DNA from: an uncultured virus (IMG/VR IMGVR_UViG_3300038314_001498)
Lineage: Duplodnaviria; Heunggongvirae; Uroviricota; Caudoviricetes; Crassvirales
Length of the DNA stretch: 20,000 nt
IMG/VR virus record: IMGVR_UViG_3300038314_001498
Direction: 5' to 3' (one strand)
Shown here: piece by piece, positions 1 through 17,426 of the stretch
Numbering within the stretch: position 1 is the stretch's first letter
Layout of the letters: every line of letters begins with the position of its first letter
Translations under genes and position numbers: made by a program
The notes under the pieces: model-generated
Seen by the model: the letters and a program-made list of their open reading frames with translations, nothing else
Told to the model about the DNA's origin: nothing
Databases searched by the model: none

Positions 1-218
1 TCATCTGAAGCAAAAGGTAATAAGCTTCCTGTAATAGAACAGAATGGTAATAATTTACCCTTACCTTTTTGCAAATGGACTTCACCAAGTAAGTCTGGCT
101 CATATTGCATAGCGTAAGTGTACGGATCGATATAATTGGCTGCTGTAGCCAACTGTCCGCTAGGCGAGGTTAATGACCCTGTGCCTAGGATATTGTTGTC
201 TTTTAATGTAAAAGCCAT
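1..218 (-). CDS. Major capsid protein, N-terminal part (runs off the window edge)
   Basis: Not in the ORF track. ATG at 218 opens MAFTLKDNNILGTGSLTSPSGQLATAANYIDPYTYAMQYEPDLLGEVHLQKGKGKLLPFCSITGSLLPFASD with no stop before base 1. It directly follows portal and scaffold. The NYxD...QYxP...GxxxPxxSD pattern resembles Bacteroidota podovirus capsid N-termini as I recall them. Confidence 0.75.
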   Translation of the reverse strand, partial: MAFTLKDNNILGTGSLTSPSGQLATAANYIDPYTYAMQYEPDLLGEVHLQKGKGKLLPFCSITGSLLPFASD

Positions 219-236
219 GTTAGTTTGTTTTTAAGA

Positions 237-1448
237 TTAAATATTAACTTTAACCCCAAAACTCTTTTGTTGTCCTGCAACTATCCCATCGGTAATTGTT
301 CCATAACCTTCTTCATTTTTAGGCGTTCTAACTGGTGGTGTGCGTCTAAAATTCTCATTGTTATCCGCAGCAGATAATTCGGCAATAACCTCGGCTCTTG
401 CTTGTTGCATTGCTGCAGAAATTACCTTTTTTTGGTTAGCTTCATCACCCCACCACAACCCTTTAACTAATCGGCTATGGTCAAAACCATCTTCGGTTTT
501 ATAACGTCTCTCTAACATGGCATCAATATCCGATCCGTCTGATAACATACTATGCTTATCTTGCTCAGAATAATCATACTTAAAGTTAGTGGTACGTTTT
601 TCACCATTATCGTTAAACTCAATTACAAACTCAGAAGGTGCAGCACTGCTCGCACCTTGCTTAATAGCGTTTAAATAATCGGTCTTAACTTGCGTAAGTT
701 CTTGTTGGTAAGCTTCTTTAGTTAACTGTCTACCGTCTGGTAAGGTTAACAAATTAGCATTACCTTGTTGCTTTGCACGCGCTTCATCGCTCAATGGCTT
801 CATGTATTCTTCTTGCTGTGCAAATAGTTGATCCTTAAATGGCTTAACAAAACCATTCAATTCTATTTTATCTGGACCAGATAATTCGTCGTCACTAAAA
901 TCTATTCCCAGTTTCTTTTCTAAATACTCTTGCGCCTCTTTGGTGCTTAAAGTTGCCATACCTGTGTCTTGTCGTACACGTTGTACAGCTAAGTCCATAG
1001 CAGACAAACTATTAATGTCTTGTTGTACAAAATCCCATTCCTTACGTCCTAATCCTGTATCGCGTTTAAACTTAAAATACGCTTCTTCGGACTCATCAAT
1101 AACATCTTCATAAGGATTAACAACTTTTTCAACTTCCTTAATAGTTGGTTCAGGTGTTTTTAAAAATGCATCTAAGCCATTAAACTCTTTATCTTGAAAG
1201 TACTTACTTTTTAAATAAGCTTCTACTTGTGCATCGTCAAGCTCAATTGGCTTTGGTGCGTCAGTAGCTTTTGGTTGCTCTGGCTTTGGATTTTGTGGTT
1301 TCGGTTGTTCTACAGGTGGTGTTGGCGGTGTTTCAACTTTTGGTTGTTCTGTTGGTTTAGCCGTCTCTTTTACCTCTGGTTGTTGTACTGGAGATAAACT
1401 TTCTTCTTGACCTGCTTTACTAAAATCTGCTTTAATCCCGAATGCCAT
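237..1448 (-). CDS. Putative capsid scaffolding/assembly protein
   Basis: 403 aa, acidic and helical, with a Pro/Glu/Lys-rich disordered N-terminus (EQPK repeats). Lies between portal and capsid genes. Confidence 0.65.
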   Translation of the reverse strand: MAFGIKADFSKAGQEESLSPVQQPEVKETAKPTEQPKVETPPTPPVEQPKPQNPKPEQPKATDAPKPIELDDAQVEAYLKSKYFQDKEFNGLDAFLKTPEPTIKEVEKVVNPYEDVIDESEEAYFKFKRDTGLGRKEWDFVQQDINSLSAMDLAVQRVRQDTGMATLSTKEAQEYLEKKLGIDFSDDELSGPDKIELNGFVKPFKDQLFAQQEEYMKPLSDEARAKQQGNANLLTLPDGRQLTKEAYQQELTQVKTDYLNAIKQGASSAAPSEFVIEFNDNGEKRTTNFKYDYSEQDKHSMLSDGSDIDAMLERRYKTEDGFDHSRLVKGLWWGDEANQKKVISAAMQQARAEVIAELSAADNNENFRRTPPVRTPKNEEGYGTITDGIVAGQQKSFGVKVNI

Positions 1449-1457
1449 TATTTAAAA

Positions 1458-1505
1458 TATTAATAGTTTTTACCAAAAGTATAGATAAAAACTATTAATA
1501 ACAAA
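1458..1505 (-). promoter_or_regulatory. Bacteroidota sigma-A type promoter inside a perfect 15-bp inverted repeat
   Basis: Minus-strand TACTTTTG (1481-1474) fits TAnnTTTG, and TTTG (1505-1502) lies 20 nt upstream. Arms are TATTAATAGTTTTTA (1458-1472) and TAAAAACTATTAATA (1486-1500). Confidence 0.7.
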
Positions 1506-1545
1506 ATATTTATACTAAAAATATGATTTAGTAGGATTTTTAATA

Positions 1546-1597
1546 GGTGTAATACTCTATAAAGTGCATTAAAACGCACCTTATATCATGTTGTAAC
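1546..1597 (+). repeat. Short attC-like hairpin recombination site (left junction)
   Basis: GGTGTAAT (1546-1553), then stem TATAAAGTGC (1558-1567) / GCACCTTATA (1576-1585) around loop ATTAAAAC, then GTTGTAAC (1590-1597). Resembles the Flavobacterial repeat family (Rfam Flavo-1-like, from recall). Confidence 0.7.
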
Positions 1598-1629
1598 CCA
1601 TTTAGCAGTACGTGGGAAGTGGAAAGAAA

Positions 1630-1756
1630 AAGCAAGAGGGTGGAAAGAATATTATTAGTGGATGACTAATGACCGCCAAGGTAGTTTTAGTCGGTGTAAT
1701 GAGCAGTGCTATTATGCCCTTGATGAAACTAATAATACTCTGAAATCCTCTTGCTT
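1630..1756 (+). ncRNA. Putative structured RNA (long closing stem plus three-way junction), family unknown
   Basis: Nested complementary arms: 1630-1639/1747-1756 (10/10), 1646-1659/1728-1741 (13/14), 1664-1669/1687-1692 (6/6), 1693-1700/1711-1718 (8/8 with two G-U pairs on the + strand). Confidence 0.55.
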
Positions 1757-1783
1757 AATATGTAAAGAACTAAATAAAAATGT

Positions 1784-2128
1784 ATGACAAATAAAGAACT
1801 TTTAGATAATAGTGAATTAAAGACCAATTATAAAGTATTAAAGTCAAATGCAAGAACTTTAATTTTATTCCCAATAGTTAGTTTAAATAAAAAACTAATG
1901 GCTATTAGCATTTTTAATGACGGACCGAAAAGAACTGAATATGAGTTGTCAGAAAACAACAATGGCGAATTAATATTCACTAATCTTTTGACTTCTCAGG
2001 TAAATGTTTTTGACATAACTGAATTAAATCTCGGTAAAATTCATTTTCGTTATGAAAATGGTCTTTGTGAGACATTTGAAGTGAAAGACCTAAAACAGTC
2101 AAGTGATTTGCAACAGTACTTGGTTTAA
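1784..2128 (+). CDS. Hypothetical protein (cassette cargo)
   Basis: 114 aa ORF with an A-rich leader typical of Bacteroidota, oriented as expected for a cassette gene. No recognisable motif. Confidence 0.55.
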   Translation: MTNKELLDNSELKTNYKVLKSNARTLILFPIVSLNKKLMAISIFNDGPKRTEYELSENNNGELIFTNLLTSQVNVFDITELNLGKIHFRYENGLCETFEVKDLKQSSDLQQYLV

Positions 2129-2246
2129 TAACCTCACCTTTTTCTTTAAGATTATTAAAAACATCTATTGAGGATTGAAATATCTCTTGAGGAGTGAAAA
2201 AAACATCCGAAATTAAATCAGAATTAATATCTTTAACATCTGACAT
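1980..2246 (-). CDS. Hypothetical protein (cassette cargo, antisense overlap)
   Basis: 88 aa from ATG 2246 (MSDVKDINSDLISDVFFTPQEIFQ...), with amphipathic helical composition. It fills the gap between the + ORF stop and the attC-like site. The track start at 2279 lies inside the hairpin. Confidence 0.45.
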   Translation of the reverse strand: MSDVKDINSDLISDVFFTPQEIFQSSIDVFNNLKEKGEVIKPSTVANHLTVLGLSLQMSHKDHFHNENEFYRDLIQLCQKHLPEKSKD

Positions 2247-2255
2247 AAAAAACGT

Positions 2256-2386
2256 GTTACAACAACGGCTATAAAGCATTGCTAGTTAATTACTGTTTGC
2301 AATATTTTACCTTAACCATTGTATGTCGTTGACCAAAATTTTAATCCCTAGCTACGCAACGACTTCATAGCCAAAAACGTTACACC
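2256..2386 (+). repeat. Long attC-like imperfect inverted repeat (right junction)
   Basis: Left arm GTTACAAC-AACGGCTAT-AAAGCATTGC-TAGTTAA (2256-2289) pairs imperfectly, with bulges, to right arm CTAGCTAC-GCAACGACTTC-ATAGCC-AAAAAC-GTTACACC (2348-2386). The site is bounded by AAC and GTT cores as in attC. Confidence 0.7.
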
Positions 2387-2429
2387 AAAAATAATACTTT
2401 TTTATACTAATTCCTAATAAATATGATTT

Positions 2430-4844
2430 TTAATTACCAAATATCCCTCTAAACAAATCCTCTTGCTCAAAATTTATAGGACCAGTATCATAATTACGTT
2501 GGGTAATCATCTTGCTTTGCTGTGTACTCTGCTTATCTACACGTTGGTCTTTACGGTCTTCTAAATACTTTTTACCATCCATTTCCGCAATGCTTTTTAA
2601 TTGTTCTAAAAAGACTTTTTCTTTAAACTCTCGTTCTTTTTCTGGTGCTTCTATTTGTTGCATGGCTTGTTTTTCTGCCAAGCGCAATTGTATAATCTTA
2701 GATTCTTTATCTACTTCAATCTGCGCTTCTACCATAGCCGACTGTGTTTTGGCTTGGGTGGCTGCAATATTAGACTTACGATCTTCCTCTGCTTTTTGTT
2801 TAGCCAACTTCATTTGCTCTTCCATACGTCTTTGATTTATTTTCTTAGCCATATAGAATAAGTATTGTGTTGCTAGCTTGGTATTGGTCTTAGCAATCTG
2901 TTGTGCTTCGTTTTTAACTGCAATAGACTCTATATCATTACCATTGGTTTGTATGAATAATGATAGGTCTTCTCTAAATTCTTTGAGCTCTTGCTGTGTT
3001 GGTAGCATATTTACGGTAAAACCAAAGTCGTGTAAGTGTCTGTCTTTCATCACTTCTAACACATCAATATTATGTTTACCTACGGCACGCTCATACATTT
3101 GCACAAGGTCTTTTGCACCTTCTTGTTTACTGCTAAATATTTGATGTAATCTTGTACTAATCAATTCAGCATGGGTTTTATTAAATGAAACACTGGTATC
3201 TACAATATGCTTGGTTGCTGTGTTACTCGCTAATTGTGCCATTTGGTTAACGCCTAACAACGCATCGTGTGGTAAACTACCATCTCGTGCCGGATTAATA
3301 CCTGTGGTTTCTCTAATGAGTTCATAGTATTTAACCCATTGATTTAATAATGCGGCTAATGCAGAACCTTGTTGACTTCCAGATGGTCTTGCTGCTTGTA
3401 CACGTTGTGTACCCATTTCACCTATATCAATGGTTTTCTCTATAATAACACCTTTAACGTTTAATAGGTTTAAGGTTTCTTGCCACATTTGTTGTTTTTT
3501 ACCACTACCAGATAAATCGGCTAAAGCGTCTTCATTAATAATGGTAAGGTCTGGCTTCAATTCAGCAGTTAAATGTTGCATTTTTAAGTGGATATACTGC
3601 AACTCTTGGTTTGGCACTTTAATATCATCCAAGAAACTATGCAATATATTCTTCTGAATATCGGTAGCCTTTACATTAAATGGTGCTAAGGCTTCATTGC
3701 GCTCATCTCTTATAATATTTTCACATTCTTTATAGTTATACACAAAATCACTGTCAATAATATAAGTGCCTTCCATCCAAGTGTCTTTTACATCTTGTAC
3801 TTTACCGTAGTCACTGCGTTCTGGTGGATTGTAGTTTTCGTCTTTTTCAACAACTTTATAAAAAGTACCTTTCTTTTTGTAAGCTTTATAAACTCTGGTT
3901 TTAGTGGTTTTAAATGCAAAACGTAGCACATGGACTTTATGACCTAATAAATCTCTAAAATCGCAACTGTCATAATACACGTTTTTCGCTTTATTGAGAT
4001 TAGCATAAGCCTTGGCAATCTCACGTAACTTTTTGTCATCAAAGTTACTTTCACGTTTTAGGTCGTCAATAGTAATAGTATCTACATAGCCATAGTAATA
4101 TACATCACTAAAATCGTTTCTACTCGTATAACTGTGTACAAGGTATTCCGGATCTACATATTCAAAACTCACACCATTGTAAGGGTCGGTCCATACACGT
4201 TCTGCAGAAATACCTATTTCTACCAAATCCTTATTCTTCTTTGCTTCGAGATAATCCTTTTTGTTAGTTTTGTCAATGTAGTCAATCATCAATTCCTCAG
4301 CAATCTCTATTTTAGGACGGTCTTTTATTTCACTGTATAAGCGTAGTTCTTCTTCATCTTGTGGAATAAAGCCTTGCGGAATAAGATTAATACCTAACTG
4401 TTCCTTAACTTTTTTAAGTAATGGCATAGAACGCATCGTGTTTCTGCGGTCTTCCATTTTCTTTTTCTTATTCATTAAAGATATACGGTCATTGGCTCTG
4501 ATATCTAAAGCATAATTTTCATCACTAATACCATTATATACAATACGACAAAACTTACCTGGTATGTTAACAGGTTTCCACGTAAGGTTTAGATAATCTA
4601 AATCACCTGTTTGTCTGGCCATGTGTTTTTTATAGTCATCGGTATTTTGCATACCTCTAACTAATAAGCGGTTGTCTATGATGTATTGCGAACGACTGGC
4701 ATACTCACAATTAGCAGAATTAATCATACCACCATTAAACCATTCTTTGGCAATAATGTGCTTGGCATAACTGGTGCCGTATTCAATAGATTGCTTCTCT
4801 TTCCAAGAAGCTAATGGATCTGGGTAAATGTTTTTCTGTGTCAT
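2430..4844 (-). CDS. Portal protein
   Basis: 804 aa directly downstream of terL. Motifs LNLTWKPVNIPGKF and RETTGINPARDG and a long C-terminal coiled coil are typical of P22-like/crAss-related portals. Confidence 0.85.
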   Translation of the reverse strand: MTQKNIYPDPLASWKEKQSIEYGTSYAKHIIAKEWFNGGMINSANCEYASRSQYIIDNRLLVRGMQNTDDYKKHMARQTGDLDYLNLTWKPVNIPGKFCRIVYNGISDENYALDIRANDRISLMNKKKKMEDRRNTMRSMPLLKKVKEQLGINLIPQGFIPQDEEELRLYSEIKDRPKIEIAEELMIDYIDKTNKKDYLEAKKNKDLVEIGISAERVWTDPYNGVSFEYVDPEYLVHSYTSRNDFSDVYYYGYVDTITIDDLKRESNFDDKKLREIAKAYANLNKAKNVYYDSCDFRDLLGHKVHVLRFAFKTTKTRVYKAYKKKGTFYKVVEKDENYNPPERSDYGKVQDVKDTWMEGTYIIDSDFVYNYKECENIIRDERNEALAPFNVKATDIQKNILHSFLDDIKVPNQELQYIHLKMQHLTAELKPDLTIINEDALADLSGSGKKQQMWQETLNLLNVKGVIIEKTIDIGEMGTQRVQAARPSGSQQGSALAALLNQWVKYYELIRETTGINPARDGSLPHDALLGVNQMAQLASNTATKHIVDTSVSFNKTHAELISTRLHQIFSSKQEGAKDLVQMYERAVGKHNIDVLEVMKDRHLHDFGFTVNMLPTQQELKEFREDLSLFIQTNGNDIESIAVKNEAQQIAKTNTKLATQYLFYMAKKINQRRMEEQMKLAKQKAEEDRKSNIAATQAKTQSAMVEAQIEVDKESKIIQLRLAEKQAMQQIEAPEKEREFKEKVFLEQLKSIAEMDGKKYLEDRKDQRVDKQSTQQSKMITQRNYDTGPINFEQEDLFRGIFGN

Positions 4845-4846
4845 GG

Positions 4847-7054
4847 CTATACGGCTTTACTATAATTACCACTATTGTCATAGGTAGTAAATGGGTTTCT
4901 TTTTTTCTTGGTTTCGTTATTTTGTTTAATGACGCGTTTTTGATTGCCTAAAGCAGCTAAACTACTAGAGATATAAGCATCATATTTTGTTCTGTCGTTA
5001 AGGTCTACATCTTTCCACTGACGTAATGTTCTGTTAAACACCATACTTCCCATAGTACCAATAGGACGTTTACGATTGTCTTTACTCACACCTACATGGT
5101 CGTCTATATAAGCTTCAATAGCATAAAACTGTTGGTCGGCTATTTTACTGTTTTGTGGCGGTGCACCACCTAATTTCTTTTCGGTTGGGTTTAAGTCTTT
5201 ATAAGGTTTAAATGGATTGTTCAAACTAAAATGCCTGTAACCTCTATCTCTTATGTATTGTAAAAACGCTTCGTTGGATAGCTCGGCAAGTACTGGAATA
5301 GAGTAGTACACCATTACCATAATCATTTCCTCAAAGAAATGTTTTACCTTACTTGGTCTGTCTATATACTCTAAAATATATTCCTCATTTGGTAAATCTG
5401 AGGTGTTATATTTGGTCTGTAAATGTATAGCACCTTTAGAACCTCTGCCATCAGCACCTACATCACGGTTATAAGGGTCAGCACCAAAACAACCAATATG
5501 ATCTGCAATTGGTGCCCAAGCTCTGATACCATACTGAAACTTCATTTCTTTTTTATTACGGTACTCTAATGGTGGATGACAACCTTTCTTAATCCAAAAA
5601 CGTCCTTTTGGATCTGGCGACCAAATCACTTCAGTGTCTTGTACACCATCTTTCCATCTAAAGTTACCGCGTTCTATTTCTTTACTACCATATTTGTCGT
5701 GTTCCAGCTCTTCCTCGTTATGGTCTATTTGCTCTATTAACTTCGGTAGGTTAAAAGCACAATCATCACTTTCATCCCTAAAAGCTTCTTTTGGTGTACG
5801 TGGGAATTGGCGTAATTGCTCGTTATAATCTTCTGGCTCGTCTTTTAAGGATTCTAATTCTACATTAAGATAAGTACGTGATCCTGTTTTTACATAACGA
5901 CCTTCATCAGTCATGATTGGTTTTTCTGGGTCTTCTACAATACTAAATCCATAAGTATCATATCGACCTTCTAATCCATATTCTGCAGATATAAATAACG
6001 AATATAACCCACTTGCGGTTTGCCCATTGGCATTGCGTTCTGTTGGATCAGATTGGTAAAATACCGTTTTAAATTCATCACCACCTTTTTTAAGTGAGTT
6101 TACTGTACTACCAACCATAGCTTTACCAACAATACGTGTTCCTTGTCGGTGTGAGGTTCTAATAATACGCCAATACTTAGCAAATGGTACTTGCTTAGGA
6201 AACTTACCACTTTCGTCCACAGCACTTCTAAACACCTTTTTACCACCATCCATAGAGTTGATTGCAGTTGTATAGTATCTAATGTAAGTATCTAACCCTT
6301 CATCTATATCATCTCTGGATTTGTTGGTTTCTTTCATTATGATTCTACTCAAGGTCTTATCATCCCAACTTGGCTGAAAGAATGGTGGTAGTTTCTTAAA
6401 CATAGAAAATGCAATGTCAAACATCTCTTTTGCATCATCATTGGTTTTAGAAACAATACCTAGCTTTTTATCTTTGTGTGTTGTGCCAGAATAAATCAAC
6501 TCAGCATCACAGATACTAGACCAACCAAAACGTCTGTTCTTTACATAGCAAACACCGTAACATCGATAATCAGCTTTACAAGCTTCCCAATAGATCATTA
6601 ACTCGTTTTGTATAATCCTAAAATTTGGATAGCCTTCGTCTAAGTGGCACCATTGGTAGAAATAATACGATAAACCAGTCATGTAAACCAATTCACCTTT
6701 TATAAAAATCCAAACACCTTCTCGTCTACGTCGTATCTCTTCTTTGATATATTCTCGATACTCAGCATCGTATTGTGTTTTTGCAGTAAGGCCTTTTGGC
6801 AATTCGGCACGTTTCCATCGTTGGTTCTTTTCGGTCTTATCCCAATTCAGAATATCTTTACGGTCTTCTGGTGGTTCTGGTAAACCAATATTGATACCAT
6901 TAACATTAAATATAGGGCCTAACGTACCATATTTAGAAATAATGATAGTATCGTATTCCTCGCAGTAACCATATTTCCAAGCTTTTTGTTGGTTTCTGTT
7001 TTTGCGAATCTTATCATCAACGCGATCATCACTATGTCCTAAATAAAATATCAT
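4847..7054 (-). CDS. terL: Terminase large subunit
   Basis: 735 aa. Walker A-like KNRRFGWS, Walker B SAVDESGK, coupling motif VGST, RNase H-like nuclease motifs FGADPY and KYDAYISS. Confidence 0.92.
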   Translation of the reverse strand: MIFYLGHSDDRVDDKIRKNRNQQKAWKYGYCEEYDTIIISKYGTLGPIFNVNGINIGLPEPPEDRKDILNWDKTEKNQRWKRAELPKGLTAKTQYDAEYREYIKEEIRRRREGVWIFIKGELVYMTGLSYYFYQWCHLDEGYPNFRIIQNELMIYWEACKADYRCYGVCYVKNRRFGWSSICDAELIYSGTTHKDKKLGIVSKTNDDAKEMFDIAFSMFKKLPPFFQPSWDDKTLSRIIMKETNKSRDDIDEGLDTYIRYYTTAINSMDGGKKVFRSAVDESGKFPKQVPFAKYWRIIRTSHRQGTRIVGKAMVGSTVNSLKKGGDEFKTVFYQSDPTERNANGQTASGLYSLFISAEYGLEGRYDTYGFSIVEDPEKPIMTDEGRYVKTGSRTYLNVELESLKDEPEDYNEQLRQFPRTPKEAFRDESDDCAFNLPKLIEQIDHNEEELEHDKYGSKEIERGNFRWKDGVQDTEVIWSPDPKGRFWIKKGCHPPLEYRNKKEMKFQYGIRAWAPIADHIGCFGADPYNRDVGADGRGSKGAIHLQTKYNTSDLPNEEYILEYIDRPSKVKHFFEEMIMVMVYYSIPVLAELSNEAFLQYIRDRGYRHFSLNNPFKPYKDLNPTEKKLGGAPPQNSKIADQQFYAIEAYIDDHVGVSKDNRKRPIGTMGSMVFNRTLRQWKDVDLNDRTKYDAYISSSLAALGNQKRVIKQNNETKKKRNPFTTYDNSGNYSKAV

Positions 7055-7647
7055 CCTTCTGCGGCAAGTACAGCCCAGCTTTTTTGTTTATTGGTTTCTA
7101 AATCTTCGTTATTTAATTTGGCTTCTAACTGGTCTATAACACCCAATACCCATTGGTTGTCTTCAACGGCTTTTTCTCGTGCCTTAATGACGTTAGCATA
7201 TTTATCTTCGCTTAAACCATCTGCTGGACCTAATTTTTTTAGAATACGCTTAGTAACATCTTTTCCAAACATTTGTTCTAGGTCTGGTTTTATAGTGTCT
7301 CTAAGGTTATCGTCCAAGTCTTCTTCATCTACATCTATATCTACCACCTTAAGGTTAATGTCAAACATCTGCTTAAGATGCTCAATAAGCACTGGTAAGT
7401 TTTGGTTAAAGTAACTCTCATCACTTTCTATCTTTAGTTCTTGTTCTATCTTATCAATAGAATTCATACTATTAATAGCTAACTCAGCAGCCATACGTCT
7501 ACCTTTAAGTACATTAAAAAACTTATCGCTACTCAAATCACGCTCTACGTCCTTGTTAACGATTTCTAGGTTTTTCTTTACCTGACTTTTTAGACTTGCT
7601 ATTAAGTCTGGAAGACGTTGTTTGCTATATGTTAGTTTTTTAGTCAT
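7051..7647 (-). CDS. Helical protein at the terminase small subunit position, with internal duplication
   Basis: Coupled to terL by an ATGA overlap at 7051-7054. Likely start is ATG 7647 (ATGA overlap with the upstream stop) rather than 7662. Two similar helical halves. The TerS function is inferred from position only. Confidence 0.55.
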   Translation of the reverse strand: MTKKLTYSKQRLPDLIASLKSQVKKNLEIVNKDVERDLSSDKFFNVLKGRRMAAELAINSMNSIDKIEQELKIESDESYFNQNLPVLIEHLKQMFDINLKVVDIDVDEEDLDDNLRDTIKPDLEQMFGKDVTKRILKKLGPADGLSEDKYANVIKAREKAVEDNQWVLGVIDQLEAKLNNEDLETNKQKSWAVLAAEG

Positions 7648-8246
7648 ACTGCTTTTGCCCAAATATCCTTAGTTCTCAACCATCTATACTCTTTACCATC
7701 AATCCAAAACTTTACACCATCTAAGGTTGGGTCTTTTATAACCGCATCACCTTTAGTTACACCAAGTGCTTCGATGTCTTTGTTTGGATATAATAATCGT
7801 ACACGTTCCTTTTCGTATTTAGGGCCTTGTGCGTTTTCTGGAATTATCAAACCACTAATAACTGGTGTGGTTTTGGTTTCAACCGGTTCTACTAATAAAT
7901 TCTGTCCAAAGCCTTTCCACTCATCATCTTCATCTTTACGATACAACACAATCATATTTGGTGTAATACGAAACAACTTCTGAGACTTGTCTATGTAATG
8001 CGTATAGTCTTGCTTTACACCTTGGTAAATCTGTTTATAGAGTATGGTAGGTTCAAACATCACTTCATAACCTTCCTCAATTGGGCAATCCATAAATAAT
8101 GGTACTGATTTTACCTTGGCAACTCTATTGCTTAATCGGTCTACACTAAAATCTTGGTGTGCAAAAAGTTCTGTGCCGTTTTCGGTTTTAAAAGTCTCGT
8201 TTAAGGGTTTTGGCAACTCTATAATAAAATCGTGTAAGCTTTGCAT
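7644..8246 (-). CDS. Tandem GroES/Cpn10-like domain protein
   Basis: C-half NLLVEPVE...SGLIIP...GVTKGDAV...IDGKEYRWLRTKDIWA matches the Cpn10 pattern. N-half SLHDFIIE...ENGTELF...AKVKSVP...IEEGYEVMF is a second, divergent copy. Confidence 0.7.
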   Translation of the reverse strand: MQSLHDFIIELPKPLNETFKTENGTELFAHQDFSVDRLSNRVAKVKSVPLFMDCPIEEGYEVMFEPTILYKQIYQGVKQDYTHYIDKSQKLFRITPNMIVLYRKDEDDEWKGFGQNLLVEPVETKTTPVISGLIIPENAQGPKYEKERVRLLYPNKDIEALGVTKGDAVIKDPTLDGVKFWIDGKEYRWLRTKDIWAKAV

Positions 8247-14567: not shown

Positions 14568-15814
14568 TAGTTATAATATATTACTGTTATAGTTGAATCG
14601 AGATAAGCACCATTCCCTAGTGTTAATACACCATCTTCATACGTCCAATCAATACAAAGAGCTTGTTCTTCAAAAACTAAGTGTAAATTTTCTGGGTTAT
14701 CACTAATTGTAAATTCTGTTTGATCTGCTGTTGCGGTTAGTTCTATTTTCTTTAGTTTAGTTTTTCGTTTTAAAACTAAAACCCCATTCTCAACTTCTGG
14801 GTTATAACCTTCTTTACCTGCGTAAGAATCATCAAAAGTATCTGCTAACCCTAAATACGTGTTGTTTAATACTAAATTGCCTACACCACTTACAATACGT
14901 ATATGGTCTATAAGAAAAGCTGCTAAATCAGCTTCTCTAACAAAAATATTTATACCATCAAAACCTGCAAGCCCTGTCATAGCTGACAATGGAATAACAA
15001 CACTTTGGTAAGTACTTGTGTTATTAAAGTCAAAACCGTAATAACTTCCGTTTATTGTAGCAAAAGTGCTTTCCTCCCCAGATGAATCCTCAAACAATTG
15101 TATATCTATTCTGGTTGCACTATTAGCTGCATTATTTACCTTTAAGTAAAGGTGTAGCTTCATTGAAGGATCATACTCAACGATTTCATCTTTATAAAAT
15201 CGAATTACTGTAGAATCTGTAGACTCTTCTTTTATAGAAATACATTTGGTGCCTATATATGGTGTGTCTTCAAAATCAAAATCAACTGCGCTAAAACCAG
15301 AAGTGCTATTCCCCCAATCTGTTTCTAGGTTATCGCTGTACACAATATCTTCAGAAACACCACTTGGCTCTGATGCACTTGCTTCTACCAATATAAATGT
15401 GATTAATACTTGAGAAGTATTATCTATAAGAGGTTTTACTGGATTTGGTGCTGGTTGTCCTTGCAATACTAATAATTGACCATTTGAATTTGCATATACA
15501 GCATCTATTCGAGAATATGTACTATCTGCATTTGGAAGGGTTACTTCTTGGGATTCAATTTCATAAACATTAGAGTTTAGCCAATATTGTATGTCCGAAA
15601 ACAAATAAGTTAATCCCTCTATCCATATAACTTGTCCACTTGTTAATGAATTAGTTAAAACAGAACCAATTTGACTAACTACTAAATTAACTAAAGCACT
15701 TACCTTGAAATTTTTTGTTTTTCTGACGTTTTCTGCGTCAAAACCTAATAATCCGTCGTTAACCGTTACATTGGTGTCAAAAGGATATATGGAAGTGTTA
15801 TTGTGCTTTGCCAT
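14567..15814 (-). CDS. Tail/structural protein with a galactose-binding-like (CBM11/CIA30-type) domain
   Basis: Tail-attachment-like motif LPNADSTYSRIDAVY...GQPAPNPVKP. CBM-like segment LHLYLK...YQSVVIPLSAM...FLIDHIRIV. No signal peptide. Confidence 0.55.
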   Translation of the reverse strand: MAKHNNTSIYPFDTNVTVNDGLLGFDAENVRKTKNFKVSALVNLVVSQIGSVLTNSLTSGQVIWIEGLTYLFSDIQYWLNSNVYEIESQEVTLPNADSTYSRIDAVYANSNGQLLVLQGQPAPNPVKPLIDNTSQVLITFILVEASASEPSGVSEDIVYSDNLETDWGNSTSGFSAVDFDFEDTPYIGTKCISIKEESTDSTVIRFYKDEIVEYDPSMKLHLYLKVNNAANSATRIDIQLFEDSSGEESTFATINGSYYGFDFNNTSTYQSVVIPLSAMTGLAGFDGINIFVREADLAAFLIDHIRIVSGVGNLVLNNTYLGLADTFDDSYAGKEGYNPEVENGVLVLKRKTKLKKIELTATADQTEFTISDNPENLHLVFEEQALCIDWTYEDGVLTLGNGAYLDSTITVIYYN

Positions 15815-15824
15815 GATTAACAGT

Positions 15825-15880
15825 ATAGATTATTTCTATCAATAGTAACAAATGTATTAATATAATCTATTGAATACAAA
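15825..15880 (-). promoter_or_regulatory. Bacteroidota sigma-A type promoter with dyad symmetry upstream of the tail/lysis operon
   Basis: Minus-strand TACATTTG (15856-15849) and TTTG (15880-15877) with a 20-nt spacer. Arms are ATAGATTAT (15825-15833) and ATAATCTAT (15862-15870). Confidence 0.68.
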
Positions 15881-15924
15881 TAATTTATATTTATTATGTA
15901 ATTTTATAGTACAATAAATGTTAT

Positions 15925-16503
15925 ATGGCTAAGAAAAACAGCGAATTTATACCAGGGTACAAGAAGAAAAAACTACGAGGTATAGAGATTAGACTTCGTG
16001 AGGATAACGAGAAATACTCTAAAAAGCAGTATGTTCAGATATATAAGGGCTACGATTTTTTAGAGAATATTATGGTAGTACGCAATTATATTCAAAAATA
16101 TTATGATATTGACTGGCAATGTTTAGAATTACTTTTAAAGCTTATGGGTATGCGTGCTTTTACAATAAGAGACTATACTGATTTACCAAAGGATTATAGC
16201 TACTCTAGGTTTAATAACATGCGAGAACGCGGTTTTATAGCTTTATTGCAAGAACATAACTCGGCAGAAAAAAGTCTGTTTTGTCTCAGTGCCAGAGGGC
16301 AGAATATATGCACTAATTTTTATGCTATGCTTAGTGGTGAAAAAAAGATACCAGAAGACTCAAGGCATAATCTTATGGCTAAGAAAGATGCAACACCTTT
16401 TGATAAAAAGAAAATGAAGCTAATTGAAAAACTCAACCAGCTTCCAGTAAAAGAGCATTTTAAAAAGTTGTTTTTATTTATATGGTTTATTCCAATGTTC
16501 TAA
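15925..16503 (+). CDS. Winged-helix (MarR-like) DNA-binding protein, candidate regulator
   Basis: IDWQCLELLLKL...FTIRDY...SRFNNMRERGFI...LFCLSARG fits the wHTH pattern (helix, xxxGxI, wing, LS/TxxG). It is the only core gene on the + strand and is divergent from the late operon. Confidence 0.6.
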   Translation: MAKKNSEFIPGYKKKKLRGIEIRLREDNEKYSKKQYVQIYKGYDFLENIMVVRNYIQKYYDIDWQCLELLLKLMGMRAFTIRDYTDLPKDYSYSRFNNMRERGFIALLQEHNSAEKSLFCLSARGQNICTNFYAMLSGEKKIPEDSRHNLMAKKDATPFDKKKMKLIEKLNQLPVKEHFKKLFLFIWFIPMF

Positions 16504-16563
16504 GGCTAGAGCTATTAAAGCAAAACCAACTACCCAAACTATAAATCCATAAATAATACTCAT
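16474..16563 (-). CDS. Small hydrophobic peptide (29 aa)
   Basis: MSIIYGFIVWVVGFALIALALEHWNKPYK, one TM segment, just downstream of groES. Below the ORF-track cutoff. Confidence 0.4.
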   Translation of the reverse strand: MSIIYGFIVWVVGFALIALALEHWNKPYK

Positions 16564-16588
16564 ATATGATAAATTTAAGGATTTTTAT

Positions 16589-16861
16589 TTAAAGTAGCGC
16601 AATCACTTCACCTTTAGCATGTTCGTCACCAACCTTTAATACAATAAGGTCGTCTTCGTCTTTGTATGGTAATGATTTACCTGCATGTTCATGGTATATT
16701 ACCACTTTACCTTCATAAAAGCGTTCGTCGGTGCATTTTTCACCTACCAATACTATTTTTCCTTTGCATTGCTTTTTTTGGTCGCTTGCCAATAGCCAAA
16801 TAGATCCGCTTTTTTCTTCTTTAATTGGTTTTACTAAAATTGTGTTGTGGAGTAGTCTCAT
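16589..16861 (-). CDS. groES: Co-chaperonin GroES (Cpn10)-like protein
   Basis: 90 aa. MRLLHNTILVKP...KSGSIWL...KGKIVLVG...EGKVVIYHEHAG...EVIALL follows the Cpn10 consensus. Confidence 0.8.
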   Translation of the reverse strand: MRLLHNTILVKPIKEEKSGSIWLLASDQKKQCKGKIVLVGEKCTDERFYEGKVVIYHEHAGKSLPYKDEDDLIVLKVGDEHAKGEVIALL

Positions 16862-17072
16862 TTTCTTCTTTTTTAATATATCGTGTTACGTCGTTTTTTG
16901 TCCATGTGAGCAATTTTAAAAATACGCTCATGGTAATTTCCTTTCCTTTACTTAGTCGGTATAGTGTATGCCTAGAGATTCCTATGTCGTTTACCAATTC
17001 GTTTTGTGATAAAGCATTTTGGTATTGGTGCTTTTTTAAATCTCGGTACATGCGGTCTGTATCGAATATCAT
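16821..17072 (-). CDS. Cro/C1 (XRE)-type HTH protein
   Basis: LSQNELVNDIGISRHTLYRLSKGKEITMSVFLKL fits the XRE helix-turn-helix. Confidence 0.8.
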   Translation of the reverse strand: MIFDTDRMYRDLKKHQYQNALSQNELVNDIGISRHTLYRLSKGKEITMSVFLKLLTWTKNDVTRYIKKEENETTPQHNFSKTN

Positions 17073-17426
17073 TTACCAATCTTTTATACCGTTGTTAAAC
17101 TTCTCTTCGTACAGTAAGCCAATACATTTGCCTTGGTATTGATTAATGAGGAAAATCTCTTCTACGTCATCATCAAAATGCAAATCAAAGTCCTTTACAA
17201 ACTTGTACTTATCGTCGTGCTCAGTAAACTGTATATTTTCCCTAGCAATACCAAGCATATCTGTTAGCTGAAATAGATCATCGTTGTTAATAGGTTTGTT
17301 ACCATACATCATAGTCGCTCGGCTTGTAGTGACAAACACCTCGGCACCAAGCTCTAAAAACTTTTTGCAAAGGGATTGTACTGGTTCTGTAGTTAGCGTA
17401 CTATCAAAATCAAAACTTACTTTCAT
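17073..17426 (-). CDS. Small HAD-superfamily phosphatase-like protein
   Basis: Motif I VSFDFDSTL, motif II VTTSR, motif III K, motif IV LHFDDD. Confidence 0.75.
   Translation of the reverse strand: MKVSFDFDSTLTTEPVQSLCKKFLELGAEVFVTTSRATMMYGNKPINNDDLFQLTDMLGIARENIQFTEHDDKYKFVKDFDLHFDDDVEEIFLINQYQGKCIGLLYEEKFNNGIKDW

Follow-up and report, generated by a model that had tools for sequence, protein, structure and literature searches.

An integron-like, one-cassette module between head genes of an uncultured Crassvirales phage, and its relation to gene-cassette arrays of Flavobacteriaceae

Our study examined a 20,000 nucleotide (nt) stretch of DNA (hereafter, the window) from an uncultured virus of the Crassvirales (IMG/VR record IMGVR_UViG_3300038314_001498) and found that the spacer between its portal gene and the next head gene harbours an integron-like module, composed of a single gene cassette and two sites of the attC type. 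Our overall interpretation, to which we assign a probability of roughly 0.6, is that the cassette was inserted into the shorter of these two sites by a Xer-like tyrosine recombinase. The components of this interpretation differ in strength: the identity of the parts is close to secure, and the capture of the cassette inside the phage is a matter of even odds. An integron-like module with one integrated cassette had been proposed from the letters of the window in an earlier, model-made annotation (the original prediction), and this central proposal was borne out.

The module was first indicated by four octamers, GGTGTAAT (1546-1553), GTTGTAAC (1590-1597), GTTACAAC (2256-2263) and GTTACACC (2379-2386), all of which were found where the original prediction had placed them. 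As it had claimed, they pair across the module in preference to within each hairpin: 1590-1597 is complementary to 2256-2263 at 8/8 positions and 1546-1553 to 2379-2386 at 7/8, and the corresponding 9-mers, counted on the letters, pair at 8/9 and 7/9 positions, compared to 4/9 and 6/9 when each site is paired with itself. The crossover point would fall between G1590 and T1591 in the short site and between G2379 and T2380 in the long site, and the two sites are 657 nt apart (Table 1). The long site scored 96.5 bits (E 8e-18) with family model R1, whose alignment of 11 long sites includes that of the window, and the short site scored 48.8 bits (E 1e-9) with model R2, which was built from 12 host copies only; under R1 the short site reached merely 16.4 bits (E 0.13). 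The core of the short site (1550-1585) is 82-93 % identical to elements inside the arrays of many host genomes. Both window sites are members of host attC-type families. Only AAC and GTT are invariant in these sites, and the strict agreement with the core consensus RYYYAAC...G/TTRRRY (as quoted in the available part of PMC9892861) that had been claimed was not found, as the window boxes GTTGTAA and GTTACAC have pyrimidines at the RRR positions and the left box of the short site ends in AAT. A search against Flavo-1, suggested originally as a check, was also negative: Rfam gave 0 matches at gathering in the window and 6 weak, unrelated hits in 1400-2500, neither Flavo-1 nor any attC-like family among them, and one weak, unrelated match and no attC-like family in two host array stretches (L005 and L006).

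The long host family was defined by an element of ~135 nt that ends the homology between the cassette and host DNA, and which is multicopy on Algibacter and Hyunsoonleella contigs, where it lies between small, co-oriented open reading frames (ORFs). In the 11 long sites the AAC and GTT triplets never vary and the 14-bp stem is bulged, with 98.4 % of cells paired over 17 pairs and compensatory change in 8 of these; 0/500 shuffles paired as highly, and slid controls gave 24-41 %. In two host arrays, 10/10 successive pairs of sites show full complementarity between the closing 9 nt of one site, counted from GTT, and the opening 9 nt, ending in AAC, of the next. This 9/9 boundary rule is interpreted as the footprint of cassettes recombining between G and TT. 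The long type was detected in 133/151 sampled Flavobacteriaceae genomes, in arrays of up to ~70 kb, and the host cassettes include an ArsR/MerT pair, an OLD-family ATPase-nuclease and a lipocalin-like protein. The short class (~57 nt, with 3+11 pairs in R2 and an invariant ATTAAAAC loop in the 12 host copies) was detected in 49/151 genomes, where short and long sites are mixed within arrays and share one orientation, and the short site of G038 follows the boundary rule at 9/9 with the preceding long site. Homologues of both hairpins, multicopy and bounding variable genes, had been anticipated. Because of the score under the host-only model, the occurrence in 49 genomes, the interspersion within arrays and the G038 boundary, the left hairpin is a normal attC type of the hosts rather than something devised by the phage, and the proposal of a phage-specific landing pad was not supported. 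Published surveys, as far as the available part of PMC9024848 goes, report next to no integrons in Bacteroidetes, and a search of the literature on Flavobacteriaceae with attC or chromosomal integron found no paper describing these arrays.

The cassette was followed outside the phage in four public sequencing runs (X9, X12, X13 and X16), compared to the window as contigs. A 1,012 nt metagenome contig from run X12 equals window 1590-2381 with 0 differences, preceded by the 3' end of another long site and followed by unrelated sequence. Since this contig matches the window exactly between other flanks, the breakpoints of the cassette lie at the G/TT cores. A contig from run X16, isolate-type and assigned to a named organism, carries cassette DNA that is ~95 % identical and likewise starts at 1590 after another long site. 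The ends predicted at G1590 and G2379 were thereby recovered, and the cassette is a discrete mobile unit that occurs in another context with GTT breakpoints. Run X9 contained the module-bearing allele in pieces, with no joint, and run X13 only short, unlike pieces. Furthermore, the opening 9 nt of the cassette are complementary to the R'' box of its own site at 8/9 positions.

Within the cassette, a structured leader precedes a single gene, ORF114, which lies on the strand opposite to the head operon. The leader region (1598-1783) has a predicted RNA fold of -53.7 kcal/mol (z -5.9), and a homologue in genome G154 (L044 1146-1298; 76 % identity, E 4e-20) follows directly after the GTT of a long site and precedes a different ORF, which indicates that the leader belongs to cassettes. 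Between the two copies, 42 predicted pairs included 7 compensatory changes and 0 broken pairs. The leader had no Rfam match, and model R3, made from these two sequences, gave hits in 0/151 genomes, with G154, the one known holder, outside the sample; either the leader is rare or a two-sequence model is too narrow, and this blank proves little. ORF114 is encoded on two Flavobacteriaceae contigs, from an uncultured Algibacter and from Hyunsoonleella, and the ORF with its long site is 71-73 % identical to array cassettes of these genera, the DNA homology beginning ~10 nt ahead of the start codon and stopping with GTTAC (2379-2383). AlphaFold2 predicted an eight-stranded beta barrel (pLDDT 90, pTM 0.80), for which a fold search returned weak lipocalin-like matches only (best E 8e-3), and Pfam and PHROG gave no hit. 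An antisense frame overlapping ORF114 had no family hit and one chance-level tblastn match in phages (E 0.9). The X16 copy of the cassette has a 32-nt deletion (2215-2246) just before the long site, and this frame is doubtful as a gene because the deletion takes away its start region.

Table 1. Coordinates of the module and its neighbouring features in the window (aa, amino acids)
Feature	Position	Strand	Details
403-aa head-module gene, left border of cargo locus	237-1448	-	phrog_16786 (function unknown), E 2.9e-56
Perfect 15-bp hairpin just upstream of 403-aa gene	1458-1500	-	Fold z -4.75, 0/200 shuffles as good
Direct repeat, left copy flanking module	1509-1529	+	Repeat families D11, D14, D16
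Short attC-type site	1544-1598	+	R'' box ending AAT, 11-bp stem, conserved 8-nt loop ATTAAAAC, R' box GTTGTAAC
Gene cassette, 789 nt	1591-2379	+	Leader, ORF114 and own long site body up to G of GTT
Structured 5' leader	1620-1775	+	Long outer stem around three-way junction
ORF114, cargo gene, 114 aa	1784-2128	+	5 homologues, 63-98 % identity, 113-115 aa
Antisense open frame, 99 aa, overlapping ORF114 3' end	1980-2279	-	Open in L005 and L006 too
Long attC-type site of cassette	2255-2387	+	R'' ending AAC, 14-bp bulged stem, variable centre ~80 nt, R' GTTACACC
Direct repeat, right copy	2401-2429	+	8 extra nt; abuts portal stop codon
Portal gene, right border of cargo locus	2430-4844	-	phrog_6547, E 1.2e-175
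Large terminase gene	4847-7054	-	Gene order: terminase, portal, 981-nt gap, 403-aa gene, virion structural gene

A tyrosine recombinase gene is associated with the host arrays, as had been expected for Flavobacteriaceae. In 4/5 well-assembled host genomes a Xer-like recombinase of 376-398 aa is encoded immediately upstream of the array on the same strand, and all 4 genomes with such a gene beside the array have the two co-directional. These proteins scored 182-197 bits against TIGR02249, compared to a cut-off of 265, in two matched stretches that leave the IntI-specific positions 181-239 unmatched, and their best solved relative is the XerC-like 4a8e. After 7/7 host recombinase genes (L039-L043, L007 and L008) we observed a spacer of ~10-120 nt, TATA-rich letters, 4-7 nt and then GTTG; by eye, the TATA-rich stretch is a short hairpin with TATA-type arms in 5/7. 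This GTTG junction is a candidate attI-type junction, and the short-site model gave no match to it.

Clusters of attC sites lacking an integrase (CALINs) are reportedly recognized, since work by Cury in 2016, wherever two or more attC sites lie near one another and an integrase is absent from the vicinity. In the window, two sites lie this close, none of the 29 ORFs scanned matched a tyrosine recombinase or Phage_integrase, in agreement with the absence of an integrase noted originally, and the nearest recombinase is encoded ~11 kb beyond the left end. This gene was found on contig G404, which matches the window at 100 % identity over its first 3,744 nt and the genome type of the window, also at 100 %, over 8,505 nt. 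It encodes a Xer-like protein of ~260-270 aa (PF00589, 83.9 bits; TIGR02249, 68 bits), the start of the gene being interrupted by a masked run of 10 Ns. The closest homologue of this protein is the annotated integrase of Cellulophaga phage Ingeline, at 66 % identity; identity falls to ~40 % for the integrases of Polaribacter phages and to 37 % for a host array recombinase. The locus (L069 2218-3031 on the minus strand and 3071-4783 on the plus strand, equal to G404 14717-17282) lies ~11-13.5 kb left of window position 1, with phage genes on both sides. A G/TT junction is situated ~40 nt from the start codon, and an array divergent from the gene holds two cassettes, each ended by a long site (73 and 55 bits) and each following the boundary rule at 9/9; one contains a lipoprotein-like 256-aa ORF and a small ORF, and the other a reversed 71-aa ORF. 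Judged from its sequence, this locus appears to be a complete integron-like platform in a phage. The recombinase may primarily serve another role; near the integrase of Ingeline, no site rose above noise (best 18.3 bits, E 0.05). Neither the host-array nor the phage recombinase is a classical IntI. The earlier proposal was of a tyrosine recombinase acting in trans from the host or a distant source; the enzyme need not come from a host, since G404 encodes its own.

The location of the module was compared across ten related loci, to which G001, L003, L004 and L031, being identical pieces of the same phage, added no comparative information; relatives with a 75-92 % identical head gene exist outside these loci. 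The insert had been placed between portal and scaffold genes, and the portal assignment stood (phrog_6547), whereas the 'scaffold' is the 403-aa gene of a PHROG family without assigned function. This gene is 32 % identical to its counterpart in phage phi18:3, the hypothetical protein gp103, and 39 homologues were found. The gap between portal and head gene measures 84, 102, 144, 186, 201 and 283 nt in six relatives, 995, 1,391 and 1,710 nt in three, and ~2.1 kb, with an exonuclease gene, in phi18:3. The short gaps contain terminators, as judged by eye, and the putative head-gene promoter. Cargo without attC-type sites occupies the gaps of L033 (3291-5000, 1,710 nt), L037 (3715-4709, 995 nt) and phi18:3 (L001 3354-5474), and the portal-to-head-gene spacer is a general insertion hot spot. 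L035, a distantly related phage (head gene 45 % and portal 58 % identical), is the sole compared relative in whose gap the models found sites: the portal gene is adjoined by a long site (59 bits) and the head gene by a short one (28 bits, E 4e-4), in the same order and orientation as in the window, with two other ORFs as cargo and a cassette start that matches its own site at 9/9. Different cargo in the same layout at the same locus had been predicted.

We favour the capture of one attC-type site by another with a Xer-like recombinase. On this reading, window 1544-2387 would be a two-site, one-cassette module of the Flavobacteriaceae gene-capture system, located in the spacer that separates the portal gene from the promoter of the next head gene. 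Site-specific recombination at pairs of folded attC-type sites, crossing over between G and TT, would move the cassette, which would have been inserted into a short site whose original right box was GTTACACC, leaving the hybrid sites seen today; the 7/8 match of the outer boxes indicates that the cassette entered an intact short site. The putative catalyst is a Xer-like tyrosine recombinase without the IntI-specific segment, belonging either to a host array or to the phage itself. We infer that insertion took place while the short site was in the phage, that the slot is still active, which of the recombinases acts and that the substrate is folded single-stranded DNA. The flanking repeats and the all-or-nothing difference between L034 and L035, described below, suggest that the short site itself came from outside, and it would either have arrived first, as a tiny ORF-less cassette that later captured the second, or have entered with it in one step as a two-cassette circle.

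Several observations weigh against this reading. The DNA folds of 1540-1603 and 2250-2392, on either strand, were no better than shuffles (z -0.27 to -1.54), and family models were therefore used as the test; the two flanking hairpins of the original prediction stand by family membership and not by folding energy. None of the 6 short-gap relatives had an R1 or R2 match in the gap, and the empty compact hairpin that had been foreseen for relatives did not appear among them. L034, near-identical to L035 in both flanks, lacks the entire module including the short site, and the breakpoints between L034 and L035 coincide with an exact 8-nt direct repeat instead of GTT (alignment A5). Direct repeats also surround the module of the window, sharing exact blocks of 10 nt and 11 nt, an indication that the module came in whole. 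The second reciprocity in L035, between the R'' box of the short site and the tail after the long site, is only ~4-5/9. By the letters, the short site of the window is nearer to host copies (up to 93 %) than to the short site of L035, which weakens the case for an old, phage-resident pad. The empty-allele joint was not seen in the four public runs, where absence from contigs means little, and the colinearity of G404 with the genome of the window beyond 8.5 kb is an assumption. Recombination at these sites and the action of the recombinases are predicted from sequence.

The rival that takes up most of these points is the import of a block: a two-cassette circle from a bacterial array, composed of an ORF-less mini-cassette of ~100 nt with the short site and of the ORF114 cassette, would have entered the phage spacer by a single crossover at shared letters, so that no attC recombination occurred in the phage and the slot is a fossil. 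A single circle crossover leaves direct repeats round the module, as found in the window and, as the exact 8 nt, in L035, and it accounts for an allele such as L034 that lacks the short site too. The short site is of an ordinary host class that follows the boundary rule at 9/9 in G038, a circular two-cassette product would also yield the 7/8 match of the outer boxes, and, by our own count, the left outer segments of the window and L035 are alike in length (15 and 13 nt), as are the right ones (21 and 32 nt). Yet this explanation needs 21 nt to be shared between a host cassette and the phage spacer, a coincidence it leaves unexplained, and 0/401 hosts searched had the outer flank of the window contiguous with the short site. 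Cargo of exactly one cassette framed by a short and a long site is an arrangement shared by the window, L035 and, weakly, Polaribacter phage P12002L, and the recombinase and array on the phage contig make site-specific events in the phage feasible. Taken together, we regard block import as possible but on the doubtful side. As a separate observation, no mechanism that we considered accounts for the 21 shared letters of the direct repeats in the window.

Two further explanations dispense with the host system altogether. The hairpin energies, the orientation of ORF114 and the variability of the gap, including the cargo without attC-type hits in phi18:3, L033 and L037, would suit an ordinary moron, that is, a small, independently transcribed gene between terminator-like palindromes, brought in by illegitimate recombination with octamer matches arising by chance. 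This is scarcely credible for palindromes that are both significant members of covarying, multicopy host families and for a cassette that occurs elsewhere, identical and with GTT breakpoints; a terminator scan of window 1-5000 also gave 0 sites. The TTAC-like ends (GTTAC/GTAAC) and the repeats raised a non-autonomous transposable element, either a palindrome element derived from IS200/IS605 or a miniature inverted-repeat transposable element, for which the subterminal hairpins, the flanking direct repeats, a pair of 24-nt imperfect inverted repeats (1516-1539 and 2409-2432, pair I1, 79 % complementary) and the 8-nt duplication in L035 could all be adduced. We rejected it as very improbable: the duplications differ in length (8 nt compared to 21-29 nt), unlike the footprint of a transposase, no TnpA- or TnpB-like ORF was present among the window ORFs scanned, the unit that is mobile elsewhere is bounded by GTT cores that lie inside the repeats, and the hairpins are members of families that build arrays and conform to the boundary rule of integrons.

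The window is part of a marine flavobacterial phage of ~75 kb that is related to the Cellulophaga phages phi18:3, phi13:2, phi46:3 and phi19:3 (Pachyviridae), to which its portal and terminase genes are 64-66 % identical by blastn, and nearly all genes of the window lie on the minus strand. The perfect hairpin just upstream of the 403-aa gene is phage sequence outside the cassette module, and the short gaps of relatives hold an equivalent hairpin with CAAATGTA-type letters. It overlaps a motif that we take to be a Bacteroidota-type promoter (TTTG, spacer, TAnnTTTG, minus strand). On the coding strand, a TAnnTTTG-like motif was seen in the loop or flank of the hairpin before the head gene in the window, L026, L028, L032, L034, L036 and L038, and this motif is probably a conserved late promoter. 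By eye, a terminator follows the portal gene in 4/6 short gaps (L028, L032, L034 and L038). Elsewhere in the window, two genes with Cpn10/GroES-like domains were noted (7644-8246 and 16589-16861, both on the minus strand); phi18:3 has a single annotated co-chaperonin at the corresponding position.

Members of the site families were also detected in other phages. A blastn search with the long site of the window against 50,697 phage records gave no match, and blastn proved too insensitive for this purpose, because the family models later found members in Tenacibaculum phage JQ and in P12002L. In JQ (MT002873.2, L071 3995-7385), six family sites, two short and four long, were observed within 3.4 kb, surrounding two DNA methyltransferase genes and small ORFs, and the successive boundaries match at 3, 8, 5, 9 and 7 of 9 positions. 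P12002L had 9 R1 and 4 R2 matches at E up to 0.1, with three places matched by R1 and R2 alike. Four methyltransferase genes and a Mom-like gene of that phage are flanked by several family members (L072 14497-15244 and 30002-39250). Among its tail genes, the reversed ORF gp24 was seen together with a long site and a weak short site (E 0.028) in a layout like that of the window, and P12002L may hold a module of the short-ORF-long type in its tail region.

Integron-type capture is usually seen as bacterial, and mostly proteobacterial, and phage CALINs have so far been a short list of predicted sites. What sets this case apart is that a cassette in a structural operon of a phage corresponds in every letter to an array-type copy, the breakpoints falling at the crossover point, and that its sites belong to a system present in most of the sampled Flavobacteriaceae genomes yet barely described in print. 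The recombinases associated with this system are not IntI, and one is encoded on the same phage contig beside its own cassettes. This suggests that phages and bacteria trade such cassettes directly. As a tentative extension, for which the odds fall a little short of even, phages would swap cassettes with host arrays at G/TT during infection, by means of their own platform and a satellite attC slot in the head operon, so that 100 % identical cassettes circulate between virus and cell and are ferried between genera. If exchange occurs during infection, phages would be both vectors and users of the cassette pool, and this would bear on the trade of defence and counter-defence genes among marine Flavobacteriaceae and their viruses. 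The module also offers an experimental handle, with two defined junctions and one small cassette, and the nearest isolated relatives of the phage infect the culturable genus Cellulophaga.

The system resembles classical integrons in its sites, imperfect palindromes that fold with a bulged stem and an asymmetric unpaired spacer and keep AAC and GTT conserved, in crossover at G/TT, in cassettes whose first bases are complementary to the start of their own site, and in long arrays of small, mostly unknown genes that include defence-type genes. It differs in recombinases without the IntI-specific segment and in box letters that depart from RYYYAAC/GTTRRRY. The classical layout has an integrase divergent from its array with attI between them; the phage locus on G404 is divergent, whereas host recombinases are co-directional with their arrays. 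Complete integrons are also described in temperate phages and phage-plasmids (Vibrio anguillarum phages, P1 and a Shewanella prophage, in the part of PMC9892861 available), and like G404 they combine a recombinase, an attI-like junction and cassettes, but they carry true IntI and proteobacterial attC whereas the recombinase of G404 is Xer-like.

On the part of the literature accessible to us, the nearest described systems are the rAID-1 arrays of gut Bacteroidales and phage CALINs. In rAID-1, a XerD-like recombinase is followed by co-directional genes with integron-like intergenic repeats (Ross et al. 2019, bioRxiv 10.1101/471110). This layout, of a 5' XerD-like recombinase, at least two co-directional genes and repetitive intergenic sequences, is found in the Flavobacteriaceae arrays that carry relatives of the cassette, and the comparison does not extend to the window itself; the likeness is one of layout, as rAID-1 is defined in Bacteroidales by at least 44 % identity to B. 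fragilis BF9343_RS08045 and by immunity-gene content, and a description of the crossover point, the folded-site structure or carriage by phages was not found in the available text of that preprint. CALINs are reported from virulent and temperate phages, with P12002L as one example (Qi et al. 2023, PMC9892861), and its P12002L_attC2 site was recombined by IntI1 into attI1 in that study. Given the R1 and R2 matches in the same genome, the site family in P12002L is very likely what these authors saw there, as far as the available part of their paper allows the comparison; JQ goes unnamed in its main text, which counts 17 CALINs. Like the window, these phage CALINs have at least two attC-type sites with cassettes and no adjacent integrase. 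Their sites were called with attC models trained on proteobacteria and, in the text available, no donor cassette is traced, whereas the cassette of the window was matched letter for letter in an array-type context with GTT breakpoints, its sites are linked to a system of Bacteroidota whose recombinases are not IntI, and a recombinase with its own array lies on the same phage contig. In kind, the module is a phage CALIN, but one of a Bacteroidota, non-IntI system, with a traced donor-type copy of its cassette and a phage-encoded recombinase that has an array of its own.

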